The notes under the pieces: model-generated | Database searches by the model: none | Told to the model about the DNA's origin: nothing | What the model saw: the letters and a program-made list of their open reading frames with translations, nothing else | Translations under genes and position numbers: made by a program | Shown here: positions 6,930-46,179 of the stretch, in pieces | How positions within the stretch are numbered: position 1 is the first letter of the stretch | How the letters are laid out: the number at the start of each line of letters is the position of its first letter | Assembly (NCBI GenBank): GCA_018664825.1 | Contig: JABJNO010000017.1 | Location: 50,743-114,742 of the forward strand | Reading direction: 5' to 3' | DNA from: Candidatus Parcubacteria bacterium | GTDB taxonomy: Bacteria > Patescibacteriota > Patescibacteriia > UBA1558 > GWA2-36-10 | DNA: 64,000 nucleotides

Positions 6930-7256
6930 ATGGGAAAATTTCCTAAGATCCCCGAAACACAAGATTGTCCAATGACTTATGGTTATGGTCAAGCAGAAAT
7001 CGATCTTCCAAACCTCAAAATGGGCCTTGTCAAAGAAATGATGGATGGTGCTGGTTATGCGACCGACAATGGAATACCAACTAGAAAAAACGGTGAACTT
7101 GTAGGTTGGGTACTTACCATCATGTATGAGCCCGAAAGAGAAACGGATTTTCTAGAAGACCTTCGCGTAGCCTGTCTACGCAACAGCCTGGTAGTCATAG
7201 CCGAAGTTCATACACCCATCAATGCAGAAGGAGATGAAGATGGCCAAAGAGTTTGA
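6930..7256 (+). CDS. Hypothetical protein (plus-strand islet, elevated GC)
   Basis: GGAG RBS; 108 aa; no recognisable family; local GC about 43% against about 33% in the flanks. Confidence 0.5.
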   Translation: MGKFPKIPETQDCPMTYGYGQAEIDLPNLKMGLVKEMMDGAGYATDNGIPTRKNGELVGWVLTIMYEPERETDFLEDLRVACLRNSLVVIAEVHTPINAEGDEDGQRV

Positions 7257-7539
7257 TTGTATAGTCTACATGAAGTCTATTCGTCTAGAAATCACCGTCC
7301 CGGTGACTTTTGTTTGGGAATTCATGTATGAGTTTGGCGAAGAGTTTGCTTTCAACAATCCCATGGAGGGAGGAAAGGACCATCACGCCGTTGATGACTA
7401 TCATGCTCATCCAAATGGATGGCACGTCATGGTCACTATCGCTCTCAACCAAGAAGAGCACTTCTACAAGTGGTTTGATGATTTTTGCAAAAAGCGTGAT
7501 ATCACTTTTCGTGGTCCCGATGATGATGATATGCTTTAG
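7240..7539 (+). CDS. Hypothetical acidic protein overlapping the previous gene
   Basis: AGGAG RBS 9 nt before the ATG at 7240; overlaps the upstream stop by 17 nt; ends in DDDDML. Confidence 0.5.
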   Translation: MAKEFDCIVYMKSIRLEITVPVTFVWEFMYEFGEEFAFNNPMEGGKDHHAVDDYHAHPNGWHVMVTIALNQEEHFYKWFDDFCKKRDITFRGPDDDDML

Positions 7540-7546
7540 TATAAAC

Positions 7547-7578
7547 AAGACCAGTCTTTTGACTGGTCTTTTATTTTG
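7547..7578 (+). terminator. Rho-independent terminator
   Basis: aagaccagtcttttgactggtctt followed by ttattttgg. Confidence 0.6.
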
Positions 7579-7630
7579 GTGTATCTTTATATCATATTGA
7601 TGTTTTTTTCAATGTCAAAGGAGGTGCACA

Positions 7631-7900
7631 ATGTGTACAGTCAAAGACAAGGACATTTTGATCGACATGGGTCATGTATTGGTCAAAATAGTTGTCTTGT
7701 CAAACATTGCTCAGGAAGTAGCTGCGGCGATCAGAATAGAAGGTAAGTTTTCCATCTACGCAGTGCTCAATCACGACGGCGGTCAGGTTCATATCCTGAT
7801 ATCTTTACGAAGTATTGATCGAGCTGCGCTTGATCAACATTTACGAAAGGTAGCTTCTGACCTGCGTTTGCGTCGAATTGGTCCACCGGAGACACCCTGA
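7631..7900 (+). CDS. Hypothetical protein
   Basis: Strong RBS aaggaggtgcacaATG; 89 aa. Confidence 0.5.
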   Translation: MCTVKDKDILIDMGHVLVKIVVLSNIAQEVAAAIRIEGKFSIYAVLNHDGGQVHILISLRSIDRAALDQHLRKVASDLRLRRIGPPETP

Positions 7901-9841: not shown

Positions 9842-11848
9842 TTAAAATTTTATTACTTGTCCAGGATTTAGGACATTGTCATTGTTTGTGGGACCTGAGT
9901 TGTTCCCAGAAACAATCTTTGGTTTTCTAGCTTTCTTTTTCTCCTCTTTTTTCTTGGGTTGAGGTTTTGGAGTTTCTTTCTTTTTCTCCTCCTGGCCCAG
10001 GCCACCCTCTCCTCCAGAGGACCCTTTCTCGCTTCGCGATTCACCTTGTCTCGCTTCGCGATTCACCTTGTCTTTTTTAACTGGTTTTATTTCTGGTTCT
10101 TTTATTACTTCTTCTTTTTTTGTTTCGTCTTTTATTACCCTTGGCTTAGAAGAAGCTGATTTTCCAGCTGGTCCCATATTGAGAGCTTCAGATAAAGATA
10201 AAAATTCTTCTTTTGGCTGATTGGGTTTATCTTTGGAGGCAATCTTGATGCTAGATGGAGGTGGAATTTTGCCAGTTTTGGATAATGCCAAACACTCAGG
10301 ACAATAAATTGGTCGAGTAGGATCAGGTTCAAAGTTTATGATAGTGTCTTTACCACAAAAAGAACAATTTACTTCTTTGGCAGGAGTTGCACTTGGTCTT
10401 TTTGGCTTAGCATTATTAGCTGGCCTTGTATTGTTGGTAGGTCTAGTATTATTAGCTGGACGACTTGCTGCGGGGCGTGCATTGTTAAATGGTTTTGGAG
10501 CCGCACCTTTGTAGTTGTGGATAGTAGTTGGGATTGGTTTACCAACTTCTTCTTCTGGGCCTTTATTTTCGCTCCAACGGATAATTTTGTCTTCAATCAC
10601 AGCCCTTGGCTTGGCATATCGTTCACGAGTGACTTGGATAACTTTTTCTCTGATTAGAAAAGAATTTTCAGGTTCAGGTACCGGGGGAAGTGTACCGGCA
10701 GAAAAGCCATTTGAAGTGACTCCATCAATCATCAATTTTAGATAAACATCATACTTGGAGAGGTTTACCAAGTCTTCTTGGGTAAATGTTGGGAAGAATT
10801 CTTTTTCCAAAAACTCTGCATCGGCTGCTCCAATTCGAAAGGCTACAATAGTACCAACATTACCAAAAACAGCTGCTCGGACACCTTCTTCTACTTGTTC
10901 GATGTATTGATGAGCAATTACTAGGTTTAGTCGATATTTTCTGGCCTCAGATAAAATATTTGAAAATGATTCGGTGGCAAAGTTTTGGAACTCATCAACA
11001 TATAGATAAAAATCTTTACGTTCACTTTCGGGAGTATCTACTCTACTCATAGCTGCTAGTTGAATTTTGGTAATCATCATCGCACCAAGTAGAGCTGAGT
11101 TGTCCTCACCCACCCTACCTTTTGATAGGTTTAGGAGTAAGATTTTTTCTTCATCCATGATGTCACGCATAGCAAAAGATGATCTAACTTGACCCAAGAT
11201 GTTTCTAATCAAAGCAGAAGACAAGAAACGACCTACCTTATTTTGGATAGGAGCTATAGCTTCGGCTTGGAATCTATCTGGGTATTTACTATATTCTTCT
11301 ACCCAAAAGGCTTTGACTACGGGATCAGATATTTTTTCTACAACTCTTTTGCGAAAAGCCTTGTCAGTCAACATCCGCATGATGCCGAGCAAGGTAGAAC
11401 CTGGATATTCCAAAAGTGCAGAGATAGCATGATGCAATACATATTCCAAACGAGGTCCCCAAGAGTCAGCCCAGATTTTTTTGAATACACCAATCAGGCC
11501 AGAAACAACGAGATGTCTTTCTGCGGCAGATACTTTTTCCAAAACATTAAAACCAACCGGATTGTCTAGATCAGCTGGATTAAAATATATTGTGTCATTT
11601 ATCCTATGAGGTGGAATAAAGCCAAGTATTTTTTCGACCAAGTCACCATGAGGATCAACAACGCAGACACCTTTGCCCTCGTGGATGTCTTGGATAATCA
11701 TGTTTTCCAAAACAGTGGATTTTCCCATACCGGTTTTTCCAATAAAATACATATGACGGCGACGGTCGTCTTTTTTGATGCCAAATTTTACTTCAGAGTT
11801 TCGGTAGTTTGTTTTGGCAAACATTGTAACTGATGAGTTGTTATCCAT
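9842..11848 (-). CDS. FtsK/HerA-superfamily P-loop ATPase (VirB4/TraC- or TraD/VirD4-like), C-terminal half of a split module, with a zinc-ribbon and low-complexity tail
   Basis: RRRHMYFIGKTGMGKST...GKGVCVVDPHGDL, Walker B DFYLYVDEFQNF, and ARKYRLNLVIAHQYIEQ. The tail carries CSFCGKDTIINFEPDPTRPIYCPEC plus Asn/Pro/Lys-rich repeats. Confidence 0.7.
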   Translation of the reverse strand: MDNNSSVTMFAKTNYRNSEVKFGIKKDDRRRHMYFIGKTGMGKSTVLENMIIQDIHEGKGVCVVDPHGDLVEKILGFIPPHRINDTIYFNPADLDNPVGFNVLEKVSAAERHLVVSGLIGVFKKIWADSWGPRLEYVLHHAISALLEYPGSTLLGIMRMLTDKAFRKRVVEKISDPVVKAFWVEEYSKYPDRFQAEAIAPIQNKVGRFLSSALIRNILGQVRSSFAMRDIMDEEKILLLNLSKGRVGEDNSALLGAMMITKIQLAAMSRVDTPESERKDFYLYVDEFQNFATESFSNILSEARKYRLNLVIAHQYIEQVEEGVRAAVFGNVGTIVAFRIGAADAEFLEKEFFPTFTQEDLVNLSKYDVYLKLMIDGVTSNGFSAGTLPPVPEPENSFLIREKVIQVTRERYAKPRAVIEDKIIRWSENKGPEEEVGKPIPTTIHNYKGAAPKPFNNARPAASRPANNTRPTNNTRPANNAKPKRPSATPAKEVNCSFCGKDTIINFEPDPTRPIYCPECLALSKTGKIPPPSSIKIASKDKPNQPKEEFLSLSEALNMGPAGKSASSKPRVIKDETKKEEVIKEPEIKPVKKDKVNREARQGESRSEKGSSGGEGGLGQEEKKKETPKPQPKKKEEKKKARKPKIVSGNNSGPTNNDNVLNPGQVIKF
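10028..10071. repeat. Perfect 22-bp tandem duplication inside the ATPase tail CDS
   Basis: ctcgcttcgcgattcaccttgt occurs twice in tandem; 22 is not a multiple of 3. Confidence 0.85.
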
Positions 11849-11854
11849 TTTGTT

Positions 11855-13357
11855 TTAGGTAGGCAAATTAGGTGGTGGTGAACTCTTTGGTACATTAGTC
11901 GAAACAGTTTCGGGATCTTTTTTGACATGAGTTTCTTCGTATACTTTATTGTCAGTATTGATTTGTATTTTTTCAGTTGCAGCATTGAGCTGACCACGGA
12001 GAGCGTCAGAGATATCTCTTTGTTCATCCATAGGTCCAGTAGCAAATGGCAGAGATGAAGGTGGTTCGGCTTTTTTGGACTCTGTTCTTTGGAGTAAAGG
12101 CGCTCTGATAAATTTACTTGGGAAGTGCCAAAGAGTAGCTAGCTCTTCGATGCCCAAAATAAAAAAGTTATGTCCACGAGCACCACTACGATCTCGGTAA
12201 CCCTTCATTAGGTTTTCTCGACGGATTTTTTCACGTTGTTTTATAAAAAAATAGTTTATTTTTGTCTTGGTACGAGGATCTGGTTTGAAAGAGTTGAGAT
12301 CTAGAGCTGCAAATTGTTTGATACTACCAAAGACAGAAGATATTACCCTAGCTGGAGAATATACTTCTATTGGTGCGATATAAATAAGACGTATTTTACA
12401 TTCAAAGGCTAGCTTGGAAGCTTTTAGCTCTATAGCTTCGATCAGGCCTTTTTCTCCAGGAGTAAGATGAAGCATCATACTAGGCATGTCGTCTTTTTTG
12501 TTGGCACTAGCAGCTCCACCGGTTCCATCGCCTGGTAGTATAAAAGGCTCACCGGTAGAAAGAAAAAATAGTCCAAATATTGAGCCAAAAGTACTGGTTA
12601 TAAAATTTCCTTTTTTAGGAGGTGTTTTTTTACTAGCTATTTTATAAGCGAGTTCCATACTTTTTTTGACCCAATCAAAACCTGTGGGTTTGACCAATAT
12701 CTGGAACCAGACTTGTTCACCTGGTTGGATTTTACTCATAGTTTCCAGCATAGAAGCCAAAGGGTCTTTGAATCTTTCTTCGGCGGAAGGGTCTTCAAAA
12801 TGAGTATAAGTTTTGATAGGTATTGCTTGGTTTGTGACAGGAATTACTTCGGTACCCCAGATTTTGTGAGTTTCATTTGGGAAAGTGTATGGAGCATTTT
12901 GGACGTAATCCTCTACTTCAGTAATCTCAGCATCTGGATATTGTGAGTATATAGAGCTTTCTATCAAATCACGATAATGAGTCGGAGTCCAAATCAAAAA
13001 TTGGACATAACCATCTATACTTACTATTTCAAAAGAAAAGTGAAGCTGAAATTGACCCCACATGTACATCTCTTTGGCGTTGAGCATAGCATGAGCACCA
13101 GAGACAGTGGCAAACAATTGTTCGACAGCCTTTGGGGTTTGTTCGGTATCTTTTGGGACATCTACAGCTAGTAATACAAACTTGTTGGTACCGTACCATT
13201 TTATTTGTTGACCCATTAGCCAAATATCATAAGCACCCCAGCCAATGATATAAAGTATTATTACCCAACCTCCATGGGAAAAGAGATACCAAAAAGCAGG
13301 CCATGTTCCTTCATTGCCGAGATTGAGTAGTGGTGTAAAATCTATTACTATATCCAT
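11855..13357 (-). CDS. Membrane-anchored N-terminal partner domain of the split ATPase module (hypothetical)
   Basis: An N-terminal transmembrane helix is followed by a roughly 450-aa domain. HFSFEIVSIDGYVQFLIWTP is homologous to VFSLEIVSVNGLINFYAAIP at the N-terminus of the fused paralog at 31412-33859. The stop lies 7 nt before the ATPase start. Confidence 0.55.
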   Translation of the reverse strand: MDIVIDFTPLLNLGNEGTWPAFWYLFSHGGWVIILYIIGWGAYDIWLMGQQIKWYGTNKFVLLAVDVPKDTEQTPKAVEQLFATVSGAHAMLNAKEMYMWGQFQLHFSFEIVSIDGYVQFLIWTPTHYRDLIESSIYSQYPDAEITEVEDYVQNAPYTFPNETHKIWGTEVIPVTNQAIPIKTYTHFEDPSAEERFKDPLASMLETMSKIQPGEQVWFQILVKPTGFDWVKKSMELAYKIASKKTPPKKGNFITSTFGSIFGLFFLSTGEPFILPGDGTGGAASANKKDDMPSMMLHLTPGEKGLIEAIELKASKLAFECKIRLIYIAPIEVYSPARVISSVFGSIKQFAALDLNSFKPDPRTKTKINYFFIKQREKIRRENLMKGYRDRSGARGHNFFILGIEELATLWHFPSKFIRAPLLQRTESKKAEPPSSLPFATGPMDEQRDISDALRGQLNAATEKIQINTDNKVYEETHVKKDPETVSTNVPKSSPPPNLPT

Positions 13358-13413
13358 ATTATAAATTCTTATATATTATACCTTTTTTTTGCATTTTTTT
13401 AAAGTAAAATTTA

Positions 13414-13452
13414 AAAAAACAACAACCCGCATATTTTGGGTTGTTGTTTTTA
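13414..13452. terminator. Bidirectional terminator hairpin
   Basis: aacaacccgcatattttgggttgtt with T-runs on both sides. Confidence 0.55.
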
Positions 13453-13468: not shown

Positions 13469-14629
13469 TTATTCTTGTTTTAGGAAATACCTTCCTTTTT
13501 CATCTCGGGCAAATCGATCTTTATTCATCAAAGCAAGAGTGATAGTAGTTTCTTTGATCATGCGTCTTTCCATAACTTCTTTGACAATTTCCTTTTTACT
13601 CATAGGTCTGCCAGTGTCATTTAGGATGTCAGCAATTACGTCTGATGCTACACCTGGTTTGTAGCCCCATTCTTTTAGGGCATAGATACCACGACCTACT
13701 AGGACATACTTTTTATCCAAGATAAGTTCATTGTGGATAGTCGCAGGATAAGCTTTGCGATGATCAAAACCTTTTTTATTGATAGTATTTGCAATTTCAG
13801 TAAAGTGAAGTGGCTTGGCTTCTTTCATCAAAACCAAATAGATTTTATCGTTCATTCTTTTTGGAGTGATACTAGGCCATTCTACCAATCCGTATTCTTC
13901 ATAAGGATTAGTTTCTAGCTTTTTGGTAATATCAATAAAGTTTACGATTACTTTATCAGTTAGATTATCATTTGATGTATAGAATTCAGCAGATTCAACT
14001 TTAGGAATCAATTCATCCAAGAGTAATGGATCACCGTGTTCTTTGATAAGACCACGAACACTATCTACAGAATCATGAAACAGGTCAACAGAGGCTTCTG
14101 GAGTTTTCCAAAAATCATTGTACTGCTTGTTACCTTTTATATATTGGAACCTATGTTTTAAAAGTTGATTTAAAACAAATTTGATAGCAGAACGATTTTC
14201 GTCGTTTTGGCCAGGTATCACAAGTAGTTCTCTGACTAAATTGTCTTCTGACATCATACCACCATGTTCAGCGAGAATTGCATTGGCTATTTGCTCTACT
14301 TCTTTTAGATAAGATTGATCAAAGTTCTTTATAATTTTCTTTAGTGAACTATTCTCAATTTGTCTTACCCTTTCACGAGTAACAGTATATTTTTTGCCAA
14401 TATCTTCTAAAGTTTTTTTGTCATAACCAGAAAGGCCGTGTCTGAGACGGATGATTTCTTGTTCGCGCTCTGACAAAGCCTCGAGAATACTTTCAAGAAT
14501 CTGATGAGGGTTGAAAGTTTTGAGGTTTGACAGGTGCTTAGATGTCATAACTTGATCTAGAATTGAATCCATATGCTTGATTATTATTAAATACGCCATT
14601 AGAATAACATATTTTTTAAAATTAGTCAA
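13469..14629 (-). CDS. Sigma-70 region-4 (HTH) domain protein with a long C-terminal domain
   Basis: LSEREQEIIRLRHGL...TLEDIGKKYTVTRERVRQIENSSLKKI matches sigma-70 region 4.2; about 380 aa; start ambiguous. Confidence 0.6.
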   Translation of the reverse strand: MTNFKKYVILMAYLIIIKHMDSILDQVMTSKHLSNLKTFNPHQILESILEALSEREQEIIRLRHGLSGYDKKTLEDIGKKYTVTRERVRQIENSSLKKIIKNFDQSYLKEVEQIANAILAEHGGMMSEDNLVRELLVIPGQNDENRSAIKFVLNQLLKHRFQYIKGNKQYNDFWKTPEASVDLFHDSVDSVRGLIKEHGDPLLLDELIPKVESAEFYTSNDNLTDKVIVNFIDITKKLETNPYEEYGLVEWPSITPKRMNDKIYLVLMKEAKPLHFTEIANTINKKGFDHRKAYPATIHNELILDKKYVLVGRGIYALKEWGYKPGVASDVIADILNDTGRPMSKKEIVKEVMERRMIKETTITLALMNKDRFARDEKGRYFLKQE

Positions 14630-24539: not shown

Positions 24540-26264
24540 TTACTTTTTAGGGAATACTTCTTTTTTCTTTTTCATAAATCCAGTATGGCAAACATTGTGA
24601 ACATTTTTGTGATCAGCCAAGAATTCGTCATAAATTTCTTTGACTATTGGACTGTCATCCGCTAGGCGTATTTTTTTGTTGGTATCTACAGTATATAGTC
24701 CGGCGGCTCGTTTTTGGCGTATCTCATCATTTACTGGTACAGGTTGGCCTCCTCCACCGATACAACCACCAAAACAAGACATTACTTCTATATAGTCATA
24801 CTTGTTTGGTTGTTTTTTTAATTCTTCTATTATTTTGCGAGCATTTGAAATACCATTTACTACTCCTACACTGACTGTGTTACCTTTGATTTTTATCTTA
24901 GCTTCTTTGAAGCCTTCCATGCCGCGGACTTGTTTGAACTCTATACGAGGCAATCTTTTGCCAGTAATCATCTTGGCGGCAGTTCTCAAGGCTGATTCCA
25001 TCACACCACCACTAGCTCCATAAATCACTCCAGCACCTGTAGGTATTCCTAGTGATGAGTCCAATTTTTCAGGTTTAAGATTTTTGAAATCAATTTTATT
25101 TTTTCGTATCAAGTGAGATAGTTCGCGGGTAGTCAATACTTGATCAACTGGATAAATTCCATTTATTTTCATTTCTGGACGTTTTATCTCATATTTTTTG
25201 GCTACACAGGGCATTATAGATACAACGGTAATGTCTTTTGCTTTGAGGCCCATTTTTTGAGCCCAGAAAGTTTTTATCAGACCACCCATGATAATTTGTG
25301 GACTACGAACTGTAGTGAGGTTTGGTAACAATTCTGGATGATAAAATTCTGCAAATTTTACCCAACCCGGACAACAAGAAGTAAACATCGGCATCTCACC
25401 TTTGTTTTGGATACGATCTATCAACTCAGTAGCTTCTTCGATAGTTGTGACGTCAGCTCCAACGCTGACATCAAAGACATGCTTGATACCCAAGGCACGT
25501 ATAGCAGCGATAAGTTGGCCAGTGACAACACTACCTGGGGGCATGCCAAATTCTTCACCAATGGTACTACGGATAGATGGAGCAAATTGGAAGACGACTG
25601 TTTTTTTGGTATTCAAAAGATGTTTGTCTACACCCTCAAACTCACCCACGCCTTCAAAAGCTCCGACGGGGCAATGAGTCAAACATTGTCCGCAATATAT
25701 ACAGTCTTTATCTTTTTTGTCACTAGGCATTACTTCAAAAAACTTGCCTTTCTTTTTGTATTCTAAAAAATCAACACCAACTTTGTGACAAGCTTCTATA
25801 CACAACCCACAATCAATACATTTACTACTATCAAATTCCAAGGCTGGCCCAAATTTGTGAACAGGATGATGTTTTTTTCTATCAGTAAACTTGTTTATTT
25901 TTACTTTGTATTTTTTGGCATAATTACGGATTGTGCAATTTTGATAATAAATACAATCACTGCATTCTTCGCAGTGCTCACTAAAAATAAGTTCTAGATT
26001 TATTTTTCTAGCTCTTTTTATATTTGGAGAATCAGTAGTTATCTTCATGCCATCGCTTACTTCCGTACTACAAGAAGTGTGTAAACCATTCTTCCCTTTT
26101 ATTTCTACATTACAAAGACGGCAACTACCTTGTATTTTTAGATCTGGGTGATGACATAAGGTGGTAATATAAATATCATTGGCACGAGCTACATCCAAAA
26201 TACTCTGACCAGAGTCAGCTTTATATTTTTTTCCGTTGATTGTAATGTTTATTTTTTTTGGCAT
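24540..26264 (-). CDS. hydA: [FeFe]-hydrogenase catalytic subunit (N-terminal 2Fe-2S and 4Fe-4S domains plus H-cluster domain)
   Basis: H-cluster motifs TSCCPGWV, MPCVAKKYE and EVMSCFGGCIGGGGQP; the N-terminus has ferredoxin-like Cys clusters. Confidence 0.85.
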   Translation of the reverse strand: MPKKINITINGKKYKADSGQSILDVARANDIYITTLCHHPDLKIQGSCRLCNVEIKGKNGLHTSCSTEVSDGMKITTDSPNIKRARKINLELIFSEHCEECSDCIYYQNCTIRNYAKKYKVKINKFTDRKKHHPVHKFGPALEFDSSKCIDCGLCIEACHKVGVDFLEYKKKGKFFEVMPSDKKDKDCIYCGQCLTHCPVGAFEGVGEFEGVDKHLLNTKKTVVFQFAPSIRSTIGEEFGMPPGSVVTGQLIAAIRALGIKHVFDVSVGADVTTIEEATELIDRIQNKGEMPMFTSCCPGWVKFAEFYHPELLPNLTTVRSPQIIMGGLIKTFWAQKMGLKAKDITVVSIMPCVAKKYEIKRPEMKINGIYPVDQVLTTRELSHLIRKNKIDFKNLKPEKLDSSLGIPTGAGVIYGASGGVMESALRTAAKMITGKRLPRIEFKQVRGMEGFKEAKIKIKGNTVSVGVVNGISNARKIIEELKKQPNKYDYIEVMSCFGGCIGGGGQPVPVNDEIRQKRAAGLYTVDTNKKIRLADDSPIVKEIYDEFLADHKNVHNVCHTGFMKKKKEVFPKK

Positions 26265-27244
26265 TATATCAATTTTTTAACAGCTGATCTCATAGGTGGG
26301 ACAACCATTTTTCCCAAAGCACAAAAACTAGTATTTTCTAAAACAAATAATAAATCATCCAAAACTTTTTTGTCTATACTTCTATCACGGATCATTTGCA
26401 TCAAACGATAGGTGCCTTCTCTACAAGGAGTACATTTGTCGCAGTTTTCTTCCATAAAAAACTCCATTATCCGACGCATAAATGCATAAGGGTCGGTATT
26501 GTTTTTATCATAAATCACAATAGAACCACTACCAATCACTTGGTGGTGTAGTTCGTTTTGCAAGAGTACTTCTCCGCTAGCCCCGCCACCCATTTGAACA
26601 AAAAAATCAAAGTCAGGTATATTGCGAGTATTTTCCAGAATTCGATCTATTGGCCAATTGATGGGTAGTTCAAAAACACCTTTATTTTTTACTTTACCCA
26701 AGATAGTGATTAGTCGAGTTTTTTCATAATCATCATCAGCTATCTTGGCAGCATAGTAAAAAGTCTCAATATTATTTATCAAAGTTGGGAAACCATAGAC
26801 GCCAGCTTGTCCTGGGAACGGTGGTTTGATGCGCGGACGAGCTATTTTATTTTCTATTTCTTGGCAGACGGTGGTTTCTTCACCAGACAAATATCCTCCC
26901 CTTTCTTTGAATATAGTAATTGGTAATTTACCAATTAATTTTTGCAACTTGGATTGGTATTTTTTGAAGTAGTCTTTTCGTAAATATATTATAGCTTCAC
27001 TGTGGTCAATAGCTTTTAAAGCAAGCTTAAGGCCCTCGATCAACAATTCGGGGTGATTTTTGACTATCCAACCATCTTTATTGGTATCTGGTTCGCCTTC
27101 TGAGCCATTGGCCACTATGTATTTTTTGGTAGCTTTTTGGTCTTTGACCATTTGCCACTTTAAGTATGTAGGAAAATTTGCTCCTCCCCTACCTTTTAGC
27201 TCAGCCTTTTTTAATTTTTGTATTATATTTTTGTTTTTCACCAA
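26264..27244 (-). CDS. NuoF-like (HndC/HydB-type) NAD(P)H-binding flavoprotein subunit, compact form
   Basis: GRGGANFPTYLKW, GGYLSGEETT, CDKCTPCREGT; 326 aa; its stop overlaps the hydA start. Confidence 0.75.
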   Translation of the reverse strand: MVKNKNIIQKLKKAELKGRGGANFPTYLKWQMVKDQKATKKYIVANGSEGEPDTNKDGWIVKNHPELLIEGLKLALKAIDHSEAIIYLRKDYFKKYQSKLQKLIGKLPITIFKERGGYLSGEETTVCQEIENKIARPRIKPPFPGQAGVYGFPTLINNIETFYYAAKIADDDYEKTRLITILGKVKNKGVFELPINWPIDRILENTRNIPDFDFFVQMGGGASGEVLLQNELHHQVIGSGSIVIYDKNNTDPYAFMRRIMEFFMEENCDKCTPCREGTYRLMQMIRDRSIDKKVLDDLLFVLENTSFCALGKMVVPPMRSAVKKLI

Positions 27245-29120: not shown

Positions 29121-29194
29121 TGGCTCGGGGACAGGGAGTCGAACCCCGATTCTCAGGACCAGAACCTGATGTCCTACCATTAGACGATCCCCGA
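29121..29194 (-). tRNA. tRNA-Gln (anticodon CTG), CCA encoded
   Basis: Minus-strand sequence TCGGGGA..TCAGG-TTCTGGT-CCTGA..CGGGGTTCGACTCCCTG-TCCCCGA-G-CCA. It has a 7-bp acceptor stem, a GGTTCGACTCC T-arm and an anticodon loop UUCUGGU. Confidence 0.85.
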
Positions 29195-30726: not shown

Positions 30727-31314
30727 TTATAAGGTAATCTCGAAATCATCAGCAGAAGACTGTGATGAGCCATTTTTGTTTTTGATAATATTTTCAATTG
30801 CCGCCCACTCACAAGAGGCTTCTTTGGCTACTAGTATCACAGCTTCGTCGGCAACCTCACCCTTAAAATATGTAACACTTGCTAATAAAACTTTATACAC
30901 TTTATCACCAGCCAAAACTATAAATTCTCCGCTTTCATGATCTTTGACAATATGCCCAACCAAACGTTGTCGGTCAACTGGGGAAATCTGCTTAAAGATA
31001 AATGAACCGTCAGGCTCAATAGTAAGTTTTAATATATCTCCTTCTACCAATTTTGATTTGGAAGCATAGTTGGCTGGTACAGAATATTCTTTGCCATCTG
31101 GTCCGATCATAATTTGACCATTGAACACACCTTCAACAATAACACTATTTCCAATGTTTTCTTCAGAACCTACCCTACCAGCTGTTTTTAGATGATCGGC
31201 ATTATTTTGTTTTTTACCAGAAATTTCATTTAGGATTGTTTTACTACGTTGTAGGTCCAATTCCAAATTATATATAACAGATTCTAACTCTTTTATTTTT
31301 TCTTTTTTTGACAT
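30727..31314 (-). CDS. Hypothetical protein (beta-rich, two-domain)
   Basis: 195 aa; no family recognised; sits 6 nt upstream of dnaX. Confidence 0.45.
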   Translation of the reverse strand: MSKKEKIKELESVIYNLELDLQRSKTILNEISGKKQNNADHLKTAGRVGSEENIGNSVIVEGVFNGQIMIGPDGKEYSVPANYASKSKLVEGDILKLTIEPDGSFIFKQISPVDRQRLVGHIVKDHESGEFIVLAGDKVYKVLLASVTYFKGEVADEAVILVAKEASCEWAAIENIIKNKNGSSQSSADDFEITL

Positions 31315-31411: not shown

Positions 31412-33859
31412 TTATATTATTACCCTTTGATCTACCTCTGCCTCGACTACTTTTCTATCCCGTCCATATTTAATACGAGAAAGCTCTTTGATGGCCATAG
31501 CTAGCTCATAATTGCCCTTTTCAGGCAACTGGGGTTGGAAGTTAAAGGCGGGTGGATTGGCGTTGTCTATCAATAATTTTATATAACAAGTGTACTTTGG
31601 CATATTGATCAAGTCATATTCAGAGACCACTGGAGCCATTTGTTTGGCTATGACCTCAGCATCTTCTACACCAATACGATATGAAATCAAAGTACCAACA
31701 TTACCAAAGATAGAATCTTTGATGCTGGTATCCCCTCCTTGAGTAAGTTGGGCAATGTACTGATGAGCAACTATAAGATTTAGTTTGTACTTTCGAGCTT
31801 CTGACAAAATACTAGCAATACTATCTGTCATAAAGTTTTGAAACTCATCGATATATAAATAAAAATCCTCACGTTGGTCTTCTTCTATGTCTACTCGACT
31901 CATAGCAGCAAACAATAATTTTCCGATTACAATCATACCAAGTAGGTTGCTATTCATTTCACCGATTTTACCCTTGGAAAGATTCAACAATATAATTTTG
32001 TTTTCATCCATGGCTTGGCGAAAATTGAAAGCAGATTTTTCTTGGGCAATAATAGGTCTGACCAAATCATTTGAGATAAAAGGAGTAAGTTTTGAGGTAA
32101 TATAAGGTACCATGTTGGCAAGAGATGCTTCACCGCCGGCTTTTTGAGCTTCTTTTTCCCAAAAGTCTTTGACGAATCTATTTTTTACTTTTGAGAGTTT
32201 ATATTTTCGGTAGTCATCATCAGCAAGTACTTTTGGAATCTCTAGCAAGGTAGCTCCACTTTCTTTGTCATCCATGATAAGCATCATGGCATTTCTCATA
32301 TATTGCTCAAACATCGGACCACCCGTAGCTTTGAGGTCGTAGAGTTTATCAAAAATATTTAATATCTCATTGATAACAAAAACCTTTTGTTCATCATTGT
32401 CATATTCGAGCATATTCATACCCAATGGTCTTTCAGCATCAGAAGGATCAAACAAAATTACATCCTCTGCCCTTTCTTTTGGTACATGGGTCAATGCCTT
32501 TTCTACCAAATCACCATGAGGATCAACCACGCAGACTCCTTTGCCAGCTTCAATGTCTTGTTTGATGAGCCCTTCCAAAAATACAGACTTACCAGTACCA
32601 GTTTGACCAATTTCGTACATATGACGACGACGGTCTGCTGGTTTCATACGTACTAGGGTTTCTTTGCCACGATAGCTATTTACACCCAAAATAATACCAT
32701 CTTCAGACATATTGTTTGGTGGCGGAGCTTTGACGGCTTCTAACCAGTCTATGTTTGGGGTTTCGGTAGTAGGTAATGGTAGATGCATGACACTGGTCAT
32801 TTCTTCGGAATTTAGCAACAACATATTTTTTGGTATGTAGTGTCGATAGATAAAATGATGTATCAAAGTATCTGGTTTTTTTGGAATAATAGCTTTAAAA
32901 CTATTACCAAATTCATAAATATTGTATTGACTATAACTATTTAATATATCGTTTAAAATAGCACTTGAACGGACCATTTCTTTTGTAGAAACAACAATCC
33001 TAGCATTTACCTCTAGGCCTGATTTTGAGGTTTTTTCTTCTAGGCCCTTGGCACGCTCTTGTTCCATACTCGACAATGGTTGGTGTGCTTCAGGAGTTGT
33101 TGAATCTTTATCACCTTGAGTTTGTACAAAACTAAATATAAAACCAAAAACTTTGCCTGCGGCAGCTAGTCCTCCGGTGCCTCCTGCTTTGTTTAGGGCC
33201 TTTTTATAAGTCATGCCACTTTGCATTTCAGTGGCAATCTTACGTCCTCTTTTGTGCCATTTTTTAGGAGCTGATCGGAAAACATACTGTACAGCAGCGG
33301 ATTCATTTTCGGTCAGCTTACTCATGCTATTGGTGATACTTTCTAGTGGATCAGTTTCAAATTGTTTGAAGGTTTTTATGGGTAAGCTAGCATCTCCGGT
33401 AAAACGTAAATGACCAGCGGCTATCTGGCTATCATTTTGAAAAATATTGTAATCACGCATATCCTCAAAGTATATTTTGGGATATACAGCCTGGAGTTGT
33501 TGAATAAAAAACTCTTTGTATATTTTTGGGATAGCGGCATAAAAGTTTATCAAGCCATTGACCGATACTATTTCTAGAGAAAAAACATCAGTCCTAGGAG
33601 CTAGGAATTTTTTATCTACTTTTAGGCCAGCCAAAGACATAAAAAGATTTTCTATTTTACCAAGAGCATTTTGAATATACTCTTTGGTCAACTCTTCTTT
33701 TTCTTGTTTGGTATACTTGGGGATTTTTATCAAAATGACCTCAAGTTCCAAATCCTTATTGGCTTTGGTTTGTAAGTTTGAGCGAACCAAATATAAAGCT
33801 AATGCTATGACAAAAGCAAGTCCTATAACGCCCCCAATTATAATAACTGTTGTGTCCAT
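31412..33859 (-). CDS. Fused membrane N-domain plus FtsK/HerA-superfamily ATPase (VirB4/TraC-like architecture); paralog of the split pair at 9842-13357
   Basis: 815 aa with an N-terminal transmembrane helix. Walker A near residue 425 (RRRHMYEIGQTGTGKSVF...GKGVCVVDPHGDL), Walker B DFYLYIDEFQNF, and ARKYKLNLIVAHQYIAQL. Confidence 0.7.
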   Translation of the reverse strand: MDTTVIIIGGVIGLAFVIALALYLVRSNLQTKANKDLELEVILIKIPKYTKQEKEELTKEYIQNALGKIENLFMSLAGLKVDKKFLAPRTDVFSLEIVSVNGLINFYAAIPKIYKEFFIQQLQAVYPKIYFEDMRDYNIFQNDSQIAAGHLRFTGDASLPIKTFKQFETDPLESITNSMSKLTENESAAVQYVFRSAPKKWHKRGRKIATEMQSGMTYKKALNKAGGTGGLAAAGKVFGFIFSFVQTQGDKDSTTPEAHQPLSSMEQERAKGLEEKTSKSGLEVNARIVVSTKEMVRSSAILNDILNSYSQYNIYEFGNSFKAIIPKKPDTLIHHFIYRHYIPKNMLLLNSEEMTSVMHLPLPTTETPNIDWLEAVKAPPPNNMSEDGIILGVNSYRGKETLVRMKPADRRRHMYEIGQTGTGKSVFLEGLIKQDIEAGKGVCVVDPHGDLVEKALTHVPKERAEDVILFDPSDAERPLGMNMLEYDNDEQKVFVINEILNIFDKLYDLKATGGPMFEQYMRNAMMLIMDDKESGATLLEIPKVLADDDYRKYKLSKVKNRFVKDFWEKEAQKAGGEASLANMVPYITSKLTPFISNDLVRPIIAQEKSAFNFRQAMDENKIILLNLSKGKIGEMNSNLLGMIVIGKLLFAAMSRVDIEEDQREDFYLYIDEFQNFMTDSIASILSEARKYKLNLIVAHQYIAQLTQGGDTSIKDSIFGNVGTLISYRIGVEDAEVIAKQMAPVVSEYDLINMPKYTCYIKLLIDNANPPAFNFQPQLPEKGNYELAMAIKELSRIKYGRDRKVVEAEVDQRVII

Positions 33860-33864
33860 GGTAG

Positions 33865-34356
33865 TTATTCTTTTTTATACATTTTCAATATAGCCTCCGC
33901 CTTTATTTTGGCTTCTTGCTCTATATAAAATTTATTTACTCTTGGGATTATCTTTAGCCAGTCAAAAATCAAAATAATCACTTGTTTTACTTTGACACCA
34001 GTCTGACGCATTAAAATTGCAATTTTTTGACTAGTTTCCTCCCCTTTTATTTTGAATTGTGCCTGAGTAGCAGCATCCATGGTCAAAAAAGCATTTTCCA
34101 TATCTTGTGATAAAACGCTCTCTATATTTTTTACTTCACCTGGATCAGCTGGTTGAGGAACTGGTTGAGCATCAACTGGAGCGGCAGGCAAGGGAGCTGG
34201 TTGAGGAGTTTGAGAGACCTCTTCAGCGACTTGTTCGGGAGTTACCTCTGGCTTTTGCTCTACACTAGGCTCTATTTGCTCAGCTTGAGGAACCGGGGTT
34301 TCTGGTACCGCGGGTTTGTCTGGGGTTATATTTGGTGTGTTTGTTAAATCTGGCAT
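33865..34356 (-). CDS. Pro/Glu-rich hypothetical protein, operon partner of the fused ATPase
   Basis: PxxP-rich N-terminal half and a helical C-terminus; its stop is 6 nt before the ATPase start. Confidence 0.45.
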   Translation of the reverse strand: MPDLTNTPNITPDKPAVPETPVPQAEQIEPSVEQKPEVTPEQVAEEVSQTPQPAPLPAAPVDAQPVPQPADPGEVKNIESVLSQDMENAFLTMDAATQAQFKIKGEETSQKIAILMRQTGVKVKQVIILIFDWLKIIPRVNKFYIEQEAKIKAEAILKMYKKE

Positions 34357-34382
34357 GAATATATTATAGCAGATTTAGGTAT

Positions 34383-34844
34383 TTATTGTAAGTTATTTTT
34401 TATAACTTTAAAAACTTTATTTCTATCTTTGATTCCAAACAAATATATTTTTTTATTATCTATCATCAAATAAATGCTGTCGTTATTGTGTTTTGCTATT
34501 TTTTCTATTCTATCCAAATCAAAGGATACGAGTTGTAAAAACTTATTTTCATCGCTTGCTTTGAGAAAGATAATACGCTGATCCGTTAGTAGATAAAAAT
34601 TGCCCTTGGTCAAGAGGAATTTTAGCAAAGTAAACAACAAAAATAATGTCCAGGCACACCATAACCAAAATCCTTGGTGCCCTGCCTGCCAAATAGGCCA
34701 CAGCATAAAAAAAGTAAGCACCAATAAAGACAAAACAAAGTAAATCCTTGGTGCTCTAGCCTTTGGTGTTATCAACAAAGTTAGCTCTTCCGTATTTTTA
34801 ATAAATTTGTTAAACTTATCCATAGTATGAATAGAAAAACCCAA
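34383..34844 (-). CDS. Membrane protein with a bacterial PH-like (bPH) domain
   Basis: Two transmembrane helices followed by YLLTDQRIIF-type strands. Confidence 0.4.
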   Translation of the reverse strand: MGFSIHTMDKFNKFIKNTEELTLLITPKARAPRIYFVLSLLVLTFFMLWPIWQAGHQGFWLWCAWTLFLLFTLLKFLLTKGNFYLLTDQRIIFLKASDENKFLQLVSFDLDRIEKIAKHNNDSIYLMIDNKKIYLFGIKDRNKVFKVIKNNLQ

Positions 34845-45825: not shown

Positions 45826-46179
45826 AAAAAAGGCTTAAAACCTAATAAGCCGAATTCTGTACCCCGAAGGGCGGTAATCATCTATCTAGGATGTGTATTG
45901 CTACACATCTCAAGCAACCTACCCGTTCCATAAAGGAACCAACTTGGTCTTGCACCTAATAAAAGTTTACCTCTTTCGGTATGTCACCATACTGACGCGT
46001 TAGCTAATTATCTAACGTTTTCACCCTTATCCGCAAGCGGAAGGAATATTCTCTGTTGCACTTGTTCTATTACTAGCTCACACTAGCAACGGTTGGCGTT
46101 ACCAACTATCATTTAATGGTGTTCGGACTTTCCTCTCCCTGAGTAAACTCAGGCAGCGATTACCTTGGTTTTAAGCCTT
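45826..46179 (-). ncRNA. rnpB: RNase P RNA (bacterial type A-like)
   Basis: On the minus strand: P1 AAGGCUUAAAACC pairs with GGUUUUAAGCCUU; P4 5' strand GAGAGGAAAGUCCGAAC; AUAAGGGUGAAAACG; CCUAGAUAGAUGAUUACC; P4 3' strand GGGGUACAGAAUUCGGCUUAUUAGG; a U8 tail. Confidence 0.85.

Follow-up and report, generated by a model that had tools for sequence, protein, structure and literature searches.

A T4CP-like ATPase module encoded once as two genes and once as one on a Parcubacteria chromosome

A stretch of 64 kb from a Candidatus Parcubacteria genome (hereafter the window) raises the question of what conjugation-type ATPases do among housekeeping genes, and why one of them is encoded in two pieces. 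The window carries two such paralogs, and all features described here lie on the minus strand. Paralog 1 consists of ORF A (11855-13357; 500 aa), a DUF8128 protein corresponding to the split-off N-terminal module of a coupling protein (T4CP), and of ORF B (9842-11848; 668 aa), a T4CP-type ATPase with a C-terminal zinc finger and a low-complexity tail. The stop codon of ORF A (TAA, 11855-11857) is followed by a gap of 6 nt (aacaaa) and then by the ATG of ORF B; the initial annotation was right about this adjacency and gave the spacing as 7 nt. Paralog 2 is a single gene encoding 815 aa (31412-33859), with a transmembrane helix (33770-33859), a DUF8128 module (32678-33769), a T4CP ATPase (31415-32677), and no zinc finger. 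The alignment of ORF A covers residues 9-384 of the fused protein (22% identity over 428 columns, E=1e-18), and residues 14-422 of ORF B match residues 395-809 of that protein (44% identity, E=7e-116). Reciprocally, the HMM of the ORF A family matches the fused protein (E=6e-28) and the HMM of the fused N-terminal part matches ORF A (E=7e-40). These comparisons bear out the earlier proposal that one genome carries the same module both split and fused, and they indicate that ORF A and ORF B are the two-polypeptide counterpart of the single-polypeptide paralog.

The best 120 homologues of ORF A are all about 500 aa long with DUF8128 as their sole domain, and DUF8128 is absent from all of the best 120 homologues of ORF B. 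Since 120 out of 120 homologues of each half show the same split, it is not a sequencing accident. None of the 150 listed 50%-identity clusters departs from the split form, and in 55 of 80 species-level loci the ATPase gene directly follows the ORF A homologue; about a quarter of the ORF A homologues lack an ATPase within 7 kb. ORF A homologues are 42-79% identical and ORF B orthologues 58-97%, the latter all matching PF10412 and PF23477 and none DUF8128. These sequences indicate that both halves are strongly conserved and that the split copy is stable in this lineage. In an NJ tree, each paralog forms a clade with a support of 100/100 and both paralogs group together with 87/100; we place the duplication of the module within the Patescibacteria phylum.

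To which class does the motor belong? Residues 15-424 of ORF B (10577-11806) form an FtsK/HerA-superfamily motor with an all-alpha insertion, i.e., the nucleotide-binding and all-alpha domains of a T4CP. All motifs quoted by the initial annotation occur in the translations. Those of ORF B are the Walker A motif GKTGMGKST (aa 37-45, G37-T45, RRRHMYFIGKTGMGKST..GKGVCVVDPHGDL; 11714-11740), the Walker B region DFYLYVDEF (aa 279-287, D279-F287; 10988-11014), and ARKYRLNLVIAHQYIEQ (aa 302-318, A302-Q318; 10895-10945), a conserved C-terminal motor motif inside the TraG-D_C match (aa 281-348); HFSFEIVSIDGYVQFLIWTP is in ORF A. The fused copy has GQTGTGKS and YLYIDEF where ORF B has GKTGMGKST and YLYVDEF. 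Among 56 fused orthologues, the Walker A equivalents (G418, G421, G423, K424), the Walker B residues (D671, E672, F673), and those of the ARKY/HQ motif (A688, R689, K690, Y691, H699, Q700) are invariant. With both Walker motifs intact and, as in T4CPs, an all-alpha domain between them, the motor is shown to be an FtsK/HerA-superfamily P-loop ATPase that is catalytically intact and combines T4CP sequence signatures with an all-alpha insertion.

The motor exceeds the Pfam cut-offs of TrwB_AAD_bind (45.3 and 37.9 bits against 20.5), TraG-D_C (25.5 against 22), and T4SS-DNA_transf (21.6 and 33.8 against 20.1), and it also matches DUF87. Its top NCBIfam matches are TraD and the VirD4-like CD1115 family, at scores that do not make it a member of a named T4CP subfamily (TIGR03743, the best, 45-48 bits against a cut-off of 366; NF045973, 33-37 against 250). 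The nearest PDB sequences are TrwB (E=6e-5) and also DotL, and the family profile retrieves TrwB at 2e-5, DotL at 6e-4, and VirB4 (4ag5) at only 2.1. The alpha/beta/gamma domains and four-TM N-terminus of FtsK/SpoIIIE were not found in the protein, and its best profile matches are not to non-secretion FtsK/HerA clades. The above-cut-off T4CP domains support the earlier placement in the conjugation/secretion branch of the superfamily. Within this branch, the initial annotation had hedged between VirB4/TraC and TraD; profile searches favor the coupling-protein side, and orthology to VirB4 did not hold at the sequence level. The motif it had quoted for TraD (HLLVNGATGTGKS..GDRMVIVDPNGDM) is, by alignment, the sequence of TrwB, the coupling protein of R388.

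Beyond the motor, ORF B carries a treble-clef zinc finger, CxxC-x17-CxxC (aa 492-521; 10286-10375; Pfam zf_Tbcl_2, 9.6e-9; NCBIfam TIGR04272, 8.5e-9), followed by a tail of low-complexity composition (aa 522-668; 9845-10285). The finger is found in 43 of the 53 adjacent ATPases of related loci and in essentially all top ORF B homologues. Residues 431-668 are rich in Lys (37), Pro (31), Glu (23), and Asn (20), and are net basic (48 K+R against 29 D+E).

ORF A is 100% identical to HN859_00455 of Candidatus Parcubacteria, and a precomputed match to PF26449 (DUF8128) is present on this identical database protein and on all its homologues. The structures of both proteins discussed here are AlphaFold predictions. 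In the AF2 model, residues 18-57 of ORF A (13187-13306) form a single long N-terminal helix (pLDDT 83-94), aromatic-rich and of moderate hydrophobicity (Kyte-Doolittle about 1.47), which probably inserts in the membrane as an anchor. The fused paralog starts with a strong transmembrane helix (aa 1-30, KD 2.78); ORF B has no N-terminal anchor and would rely on the helix of ORF A. Residues 58-437 (12047-13186) are modeled as two soluble alpha/beta sub-domains (60-240 and 291-410) linked via a disordered, partly hydrophobic loop. Hence, the membrane domain proposed by the initial annotation goes too far, the N-terminal helix being the only probable membrane segment of ORF A. The DUF8128 module is predicted to fold like the N-terminal domain of VirB4, which supports the view that an N-domain of about 400 aa followed by a C-terminal ATPase mirrors the VirB4/TraC arrangement. 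ORF A has a nearly invariant C-terminal motif, PPPNLP (aa 494-499; 11861-11878), with P495, N497, L498, and P499 nearly invariant in the family alignment. PxNLP tails are repeated across related loci, and the fused paralog has in its NTD-ATPase linker the consensus PPxNxPxEG, which resembles this motif. We infer a docking role for the PxNLP tail of ORF A.

Canonical VirD4-family T4CPs (TrwB of R388, TraD of F and SXT, VirD4, DotL, Cag-beta) have a short two-helix anchor, replaced here by a VirB4-NTD-like domain of roughly 350 aa. Their genes accompany a relaxase or a T4SS on mobile elements, whereas the genes studied here are chromosomal, relaxase-less, and duplicated, with one copy split into two genes and bearing a zinc-finger tail. 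VirB4, TraC, and TrwK share with them the succession of a VirB4-type N-terminal domain, predicted in our case, and an FtsK/HerA motor. TrsD, of the split TrsD+TrsE pair (pGO1-type), has been described as a remote homologue of the N-terminal portion of VirB4 and may be a precedent for an N-module with a gene of its own; it is common in Patescibacteria. The similarity to EccE of the mycobacterial ESX type VII system is far weaker, comes without sequence signal, and may reflect only a shared ferredoxin-like sandwich.

The same two-module architecture is found in proteins of Bacillus sp. BC1-43 (WP_229762801), B. subtilis NRS6107 (WP_213380696), Embleya (WP_331738717), and Halococcus (WP_244706688). 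In plasmid conjugation clusters of Bacillus and Embleya (Actinobacteria), the DUF8128+T4CP protein is always fused and adjoins a relaxase of the replication-relaxation family, and these clusters also hold VirB4, VirB3 (PrgI), VirB6-like (TrbL-like), and TcpE-family genes and a cell-wall hydrolase (NlpC/P60); within the stretch fetched around the Halococcus gene, no relaxase or VirB4 is annotated. The fused N-terminal HMM matches the plasmid T4CPs with E-values from 4e-6 (Halococcus) and 3.5e-14 (Embleya) to 7e-19 and 1e-26 (Bacillus), and it matches none of the VirB4s tested from the Bacillus and Embleya clusters. Comparison of the ORF A family with the 904-aa Bacillus protein by hhalign gives a probability of 96.7% (E=4.6e-10). 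The ATPase domains align with those of the plasmid T4CPs over their full length (25-31% identity) and with their VirB4s only locally at the P-loop; these VirB4s do match AAA_10 and TraC_F_IV. The plasmid homologues hold the coupling-protein position in their clusters, not that of VirB4. We did not find the combination of an N-domain unrelated to VirB4 and relatives devoid of T4SS components. The CxxC zinc finger of ORF B is absent from all four plasmid proteins. We found no paper on DUF8128 plasmid coupling proteins, and experimental studies of them seem to be lacking. Judging from sequence, the Parcubacteria module is a monoderm-type T4CP that was domesticated and duplicated, one copy being stably split.

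The plasmid homologues are linked to relaxase and T4SS genes; the Parcubacteria copies are not. No T4SS part, VirB4, or relaxase was found in the window, as the initial annotation had remarked for the immediate neighborhood, and none of the flanks of about 7 kb of 80 related loci (eight query proteins) contains a relaxase or T4SS gene. Adjoining VirB3, VirB6, or VirB8 genes were found neither in the window nor in the 80 loci. Because of this lack of components in the window and in the flanks, the link of the paralogs to a T4SS is inferential only. The paralogs are chromosomal, with SecDF, DnaX, and LepA as housekeeping neighbors, and GC is uniform. Immediately upstream of ORF A, and linked to it by synteny only, is the gene of a 386-aa protein with a sigma-70 region 4 and a HARE-HTH domain (13469-14629; Pfam). 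In 58 of 80 GTDB loci such a gene immediately precedes the ORF A homologue, and the pairing extends to Saccharibacteria and remains even when no ATPase is adjacent. In the intergenic region (13375-13451), a consensus scan, which implies no functional evidence, picked out a hairpin with a 15-bp stem after the sigma-like gene (13415-13451) and a promoter-like TTTAAA-17-TATAAT before ORF A (13403-13375). Upstream of the fused paralog, two small genes (33865-34844) encode a 163-aa protein with a conserved helical C-terminus and a 153-aa protein with two TM helices. The former family is conserved beside fused orthologues in the related loci L005 and L006 (E=1e-30 to 1e-40) and the latter in L005 (E=6e-20). 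A conserved 195-aa protein encoded between the fused paralog and dnaX (30727-31314) is 55-61% identical in both loci and has no match in Pfam, NCBIfam, or PADLOC.

T4CP homologues were counted in 2,918 of 3,035 Patescibacteria genomes, with 5,713 copies or about two per genome; only 148 are near virB4, and only 109 relaxases were found (Quinonero-Coronel et al. 2025, PMC12102498). The genes of the window share with these homologues a number of about two per genome, a location that is seldom close to virB4, and the lack of a relaxase. In a Tn-seq study of S. epibionticum, SEML1_0142, a T4CP-like protein with an N-extension of roughly 380 aa, is essential, as is the T4SS (Wang et al. 2023, PMC10633639 Table S1). 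In this genome, SEML1_0294 (Sigma70_r4+HARE-HTH) precedes SEML1_0293, in the same order as before ORF A/B, and the layout of SEML1_0140-0142 is similar to that of the fused paralog and its small upstream partners. If counterparts are assigned by synteny and domain layout, the only grounds for orthology here, the split copy would correspond to a dispensable gene and the fused copy to an essential one (PMC10633639). Both Saccharibacteria copies are fused (921 and 1,019 aa), whereas paralog 1 of Parcubacteria is split. The paralogs of the window almost certainly belong to the T4CP homologues of PMC12102498 and to the SEML1_0293/SEML1_0142 family. Neither study goes into the N-domain, the split, or the synteny, and neither discusses that SEML1_0142 is essential. 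The family is already annotated (under NCBI names) and counted; the literature searched contains no description of its predicted VirB4-like fold, of the split, or of the housekeeping setting.

We lean towards the view that both copies are a monoderm-type T4CP domesticated in Patescibacteria, whose partner is probably the T4SS of the phylum. ORF A would be held in the membrane through its N-terminal helix and, as the VirB4 NTD, act as a membrane-proximal docking or oligomerization collar, with its conserved PxNLP tail gripping ORF B. ORF B would assemble into a ring that, powered by ATP, drives either DNA or unfolded protein as its substrate towards a membrane channel, and its zinc finger and basic tail could serve as a substrate or adaptor receptor, like the C-terminal extensions of TraD and DotL. 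Domestication would have left the module on the chromosome among housekeeping genes, without relaxase, duplicated in the phylum, and with one copy split. The most likely channel would be the MPF-FATA-like T4SS encoded elsewhere, whose clusters in Patescibacteria generally have no coupling protein of their own.

The paralogs might instead be a T4SS-independent housekeeping translocase for DNA or protein at the membrane, which we consider rather unlikely. Its partners could be the DNA-binding sigma-r4/HARE-HTH protein for paralog 1 and the small membrane and helical proteins for paralog 2, and it might handle DNA in division, move DNA out of or into the cell, or export envelope proteins. The neighbors SecDF, DnaX, and LepA, the conserved small partners, and the depth of the sigma-r4/HARE-HTH synteny, down to SEML1_0294-0293, fit this reading, although synteny in related genomes is not independent and may just be conserved gene order. 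T4CP homologues are more widespread than VirB4 (96% against 80% of genomes; PMC12102498) and rarely near it, but incompleteness of the MAGs may explain some or all of this gap. The zinc finger and basic tail are compatible with nucleic-acid binding, and a likely split-copy counterpart that is dispensable alongside an essential T4SS counts against T4SS coupling. Against this, every relative with a characterized context is a T4SS coupling protein. The paralogs are not a replacement of FtsK, since S. epibionticum has a canonical, essential FtsK.

It is very improbable that the pair is a divergent VirB4 orthologue, i.e., an assembly or pilus-biogenesis ATPase split like TrsD/TrsE. There is no match to CagE_TrbE_VirB, AAA_10, or TraC_F_IV at E<=0.1, TIGR00929 gives 19.2 bits against a cut-off of 643, and the family profile prefers TrwB to 4ag5. 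Patescibacteria have their own VirB4 clade, and the unmatched models and the genuine VirB4 coexisting in plasmid clusters with a homologue beside the relaxase largely refute this orthology. An anti-phage or conflict HerA-type ATPase, kin of DptH, HerA-SIR2/DUF, or MADS mad8, has an equally slim chance: these matches are superfamily-level and no stronger than those to T4CPs, no other defense component is adjacent, and the family is near-universal in the phylum, highly conserved, in two copies per genome and in fixed housekeeping synteny, whereas defense islands are patchy. It is scarcely credible that the locus is what is left of an integrated conjugative element in decay, in which a frameshift or nonsense mutation made ORF A/ORF B a pseudogene, even if the relatives are plasmid or ICE genes and the split falls in the inter-domain linker. 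This reading is refuted by the conservation of the split and of both halves described above, with intact catalytic motifs, no integrase, relaxase, or other ICE gene in the window, and no compositional anomaly.

DUF8128 coupling proteins may keep the ancestral two-domain architecture common to VirB4 and VirD4, and the domesticated paralogs would be a relaxase-independent core translocation machine of epibionts, one copy being essential (cf. SEML1_0142) and the other wired to an essential sigma-region-4/HARE-HTH protein that binds DNA. We put this forward as a doubtful, speculative proposal. If it were true, such a machine could move DNA, be it host-derived or self, or effector proteins, instead of a mobile element.

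The window, part of the chromosome of a Candidatus Parcubacteria bacterium (Patescibacteria/CPR), encodes a module split between two adjacent genes, ORF A (11855-13357, minus strand, 500 aa) and ORF B, an ATPase of the type IV coupling protein (T4CP) type (9842-11848, minus strand, 668 aa), with only 6 nt between the stop codon of the former and the ATG of the latter. In the protein database, ORF A has a 100% identical match, HN859_00455. Both halves are found again in a single polypeptide of 815 aa (31412-33859, minus strand), where ORF A aligns with residues 9-384 (22% identity, E=1e-18) and ORF B with residues 395-809 (44% identity, E=7e-116). These two relations were also reproduced by profile searches. 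The initial annotation had proposed precisely such a split module with a fused paralog, with each half homologous to one part of the fused protein; this is borne out and all the motifs it quoted were found. It had also rightly placed ORF A directly upstream of the ATPase, albeit with a gap of 7 nt.

The gene content around the two copies is that of housekeeping and envelope functions (ClpB, SecDF, Ddl, PBP2, MurJ, DnaX, LepA, and glycosyltransferases). Nearly all genes are on the minus strand and the GC content is uniform across the window (0.32-0.40). The steady fall of the cumulative GC skew is consistent with a single replichore. The window also encodes a class A bacterial RNase P RNA (45830-46175, minus strand, 219.7 bits), a tRNA-Gln(CTG) (29121-29194, minus strand), and, in this small-genome bacterium, the large subunit of an [FeFe] hydrogenase with Fer2_4/Fer4 domains (24540-27244, minus strand) adjoining a NuoF-like (Complex1_51K) subunit. 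Three small ORFs (108, 105, and 89 aa) at 6930-7900 on the plus strand break the prevailing gene orientation.

To which family does the motor belong? Both paralogs match the Pfam profiles TrwB_AAD_bind, TraG-D_C, T4SS-DNA_transf, and DUF87, each above the gathering cut-off. In NCBIfam, the best matches are TraD and VirD4-like families, far under their equivalog cut-offs, and the motor did not match the models of VirB4, the sister secretion ATPase. The nearest solved structures by sequence are the coupling proteins TrwB and DotL: a profile of 56 sequences of the family, searched against the PDB sequences, gave E-values of 2e-5 for TrwB and 6e-4 for DotL, but only 2.1 for VirB4 (4ag5). Within the family, no variation is seen in Walker A, Walker B, or the ARKY/HQ residues of the C-terminus, and these motifs indicate a catalytically intact motor of the T4CP type. 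On the strength of the profile matches and invariant motifs, we place it with the VirD4-family coupling proteins. In the AlphaFold model of the fused paralog (pLDDT of 85.6), an all-alpha block sits between Walker A and Walker B, and structural models alone cannot tell VirB4 from VirD4 for this motor.

The N-terminal module was harder to identify. ORF A has no match in our local Pfam, NCBIfam, or PADLOC libraries, and its comparison with the sequences of PDB chains revealed no relative, only noise (the best match being ribosomal protein S6, E=0.25). Hence, a search at the level of the fold was needed. In the protein database, both ORF A and the N-terminal region of the fused paralog have a precomputed match to PF26449 (DUF8128). 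In the literature searched, we found no paper on this family, nor one describing a VirB4-like N-domain in coupling proteins; TrsD, described as a remote homologue of the N-terminal portion of VirB4, is a separate protein (PMC12102498). The AlphaFold model of ORF A, built from 61 homologues (pLDDT of 78.5, pTM of 0.71), comprises one long N-terminal helix, two alpha/beta sub-domains separated by a disordered, partly hydrophobic loop, and a disordered tail. The predicted fold of the module resembles that of the VirB4 N-terminal domain (NTD). The initial annotation had read the ATPase as either VirB4/TraC- or TraD-like, with an N-domain before it as in VirB4/TraC, and had named profile searches among the means to decide. 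The searches fall with the T4CP models, which upholds the TraD/VirD4 side of that reading and not the VirB4 one, and the structural model agrees with the VirB4/TraC-like arrangement. In other words, its observation was correct and its interpretation broadly so.

Relatives of the module are found on plasmids. The search of plasmids with the motor of ORF B (tblastn) returned 387 records, mainly from Streptomyces, Bacillus, Staphylococcus, Sulfolobus, and haloarchaea. In Bacillus plasmids, the match is a "DUF87" protein of 904-913 aa, directly followed by a relaxase of the replication-relaxation family, conjugal-transfer and TcpE-family proteins, and an AAA_10 VirB4. In a linear plasmid of Embleya, it is a protein of 812 aa lying between VirB4, which has PrgI and a TrbL-like protein upstream, and a relaxase with an NlpC/P60 hydrolase. 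The N-termini of the plasmid proteins are homologous to DUF8128 (hhalign probability of 96.7%, E=4.6e-10; hmmsearch E-values of 1e-26, 7e-19, and 3.5e-14, and 4e-6 for a Halococcus protein), and the VirB4s tested from the Bacillus and Embleya clusters gave no DUF8128 signal. The motor domains align over their full length within the DUF8128-T4CP group, but only around the P-loop with those VirB4s. These conjugation clusters thus have, beside their relaxase and VirB4, a protein homologous to the paralogs of the window in both modules. The cluster contexts and the homology of N-termini and motors together indicate that DUF8128 with a T4CP motor is the coupling protein of one class of monoderm and archaeal conjugative elements. 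The genes in the window are chromosomal descendants of that coupling protein. A different case is a stand-alone ATPase of 395 aa encoded by an alphaproteobacterial plasmid of Sulfitobacter mediterraneus (L007, NZ_CP081110.1, 99994-101181). Its identity to ORF B (41%) exceeds that of all other plasmid proteins. It lacks the N-module and adjoins transposases; it may reflect a horizontal transfer involving a Patescibacteria-like lineage.

The split is stable. The best 120 homologues of ORF A have about 500 aa and DUF8128 as sole domain, and an exhaustive profile search yielded 3,180 clusters (50% identity level, E<=1e-3), the best 150 of which are all of the split type. Conversely, the best 120 homologues of ORF B (58-97% identical) carry the T4CP domain and a CxxC-x17-CxxC zinc finger, never DUF8128. 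An apparent fusion of the two halves (1,016 aa, locus L042, 5242-8292) is an artefact of masked N, a run of X, at the junction. A nearly invariant PxNLP motif is found at the C-terminal end of ORF A. It resembles a motif of the fused paralog's linker, and the break between the two genes therefore appears to fall within the linker that joins the domains. Orthologues of the fused paralog are 53-83% identical, and contigs of matching length in the two hit tables show both paralogs in the same genomes. In a crude neighbor-joining tree of the top hits (100 replicates), each paralog clade is monophyletic (100/100), and in 87/100 replicates the two clades group to the exclusion of the plasmid proteins sampled, which points to a duplication within the phylum.

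The housekeeping synteny of the two copies is also conserved. Among 80 species-level loci with an ORF A homologue, the ATPase immediately follows this homologue in 55, and the gene immediately before it encodes a sigma-70-region-4/HARE-HTH protein in 58; SecDF is upstream in 33-34. In around a quarter of the loci (about 19-25 of 80), genes unrelated to the ATPase are downstream while the sigma-like neighbour is kept. For example, the split DUF8128 gene is followed by a GT4 glycosyltransferase, DUF4012, DUF11, and TGT, with no ATPase, in L021, L026, L027, L030, L032, L033, and others, and by BacA and DnaE in L024. In the window, the sigma-like protein (13469-14629, minus strand, 386 aa) has region 4 at its N-terminus and a HARE-HTH/winged helix at its C-terminus. 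Its matches to MzaA defence sigma-factor models are confined to region 4. Small proteins with no assigned function adjoin the fused paralog: one of 163 aa with a conserved helical C-terminus (33865-34356, minus strand) and one of 195 aa, which precedes dnaX (30727-31314, minus strand; 55-61% identical in two relatives, one distant). Both are kept in the two relatives examined, one only 55% identical, as is the downstream dnaX. A further such neighbour of 153 aa, with two TM helices and a weak bPH_3 hint (34383-34844, minus strand), was matched in one of them.

How do these genes compare with published data? A survey of 3,035 Patescibacteria genomes (Quinonero-Coronel et al. 2025, PMC12102498) counted 5,713 VirD4-type homologues, spread over 2,918 genomes and near virB4 in only 148 cases, VirB4 itself in 2,417 genomes, and no more than 109 relaxases; it raises exaptation as a possibility. 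The Tn-seq tables for Southlakia epibionticum (Table S1 of Wang et al. 2023, PMC10633639) include two relevant genes. SEML1_0293 (921 aa, T4CP domain from residue 402) is non-essential and lies directly downstream of SEML1_0294, an essential Sigma70_r4+HARE-HTH protein annotated "RpoS", the same pairing as that of the sigma-like gene and ORF A in the window. SEML1_0142 (1,019 aa, P-loop domain at 381-800) is called essential and is preceded by genes for a 139-aa protein, likewise called essential, and a 117-aa membrane protein, much like the 163-aa and 153-aa genes before the fused paralog. None of these genes figures in the paper's main text, where the locus tags of SEML1_0142 and of the 139-aa gene do not occur. 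Orthology with the genes of the window is based on synteny and domain layout: SEML1_0142 is likely the counterpart of the fused copy and SEML1_0293 that of the split copy. The survey's statement that the ML1 t4cp homologue is non-essential appears to refer only to SEML1_0293.

[quoted passage not shown] ORF A, tethered to the membrane, would form a docking or oligomerisation collar, by analogy with the R388 machine, where the VirB4 NTDs are membrane-embedded, connect protomers, and make contact with VirB3 and VirB8 (FEMS review PMC12857230). Its tail would hold ORF B, whose ring would drive the substrate to the channel, with the zinc finger and the basic tail possibly acting as a receptor module. 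A role of the paralogs independent of the T4SS is a serious rival. Coupling proteins are dispensable for pilus biogenesis in Agrobacterium and in conjugative systems, and the non-essentiality of one paralog is therefore no argument against T4SS coupling. A replacement of FtsK was rejected on the lack of FtsK domains in the Pfam searches and on the canonical essential FtsK of S. epibionticum, a genome with no annotated relaxase (PMC10633639). A defence system, with only weak superfamily-level PADLOC matches, was rejected on distribution and context, and a pseudogene or ICE remnant on conservation and composition.

The family is already annotated and counted in the literature. In the literature searched, we found no description of the VirB4-type fold predicted for the N-module or of its occurrence throughout a lineage of coupling proteins, nor of the stable split or the deep sigma-r4/HARE synteny. 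The essentiality call for the gene that likely corresponds to the fused copy was not found there either and seems to have been overlooked. Should coupling to the T4SS be the right reading, with nothing else unusual, this would be an informative but ordinary family assignment. Patescibacteria, which live on other cells, account for a large part of bacterial diversity. No T4SS before theirs had been shown to be essential for the growth of the cell that bears it, and its clusters are devoid of coupling protein and relaxase. Two near-universal T4CP-like genes are obvious candidates to feed it, or to serve a separate machine. The VirB4-like N-domain, the essential likely counterpart of one copy, and the synteny linking the other to an essential sigma-like DNA-binding protein provide handles for experiments in one tractable species. 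More broadly, a coupling-protein lineage with a predicted VirB4-type N-domain in Firmicutes, Actinobacteria, Archaea, and Patescibacteria bears on the origin of the VirB4/VirD4 pair.
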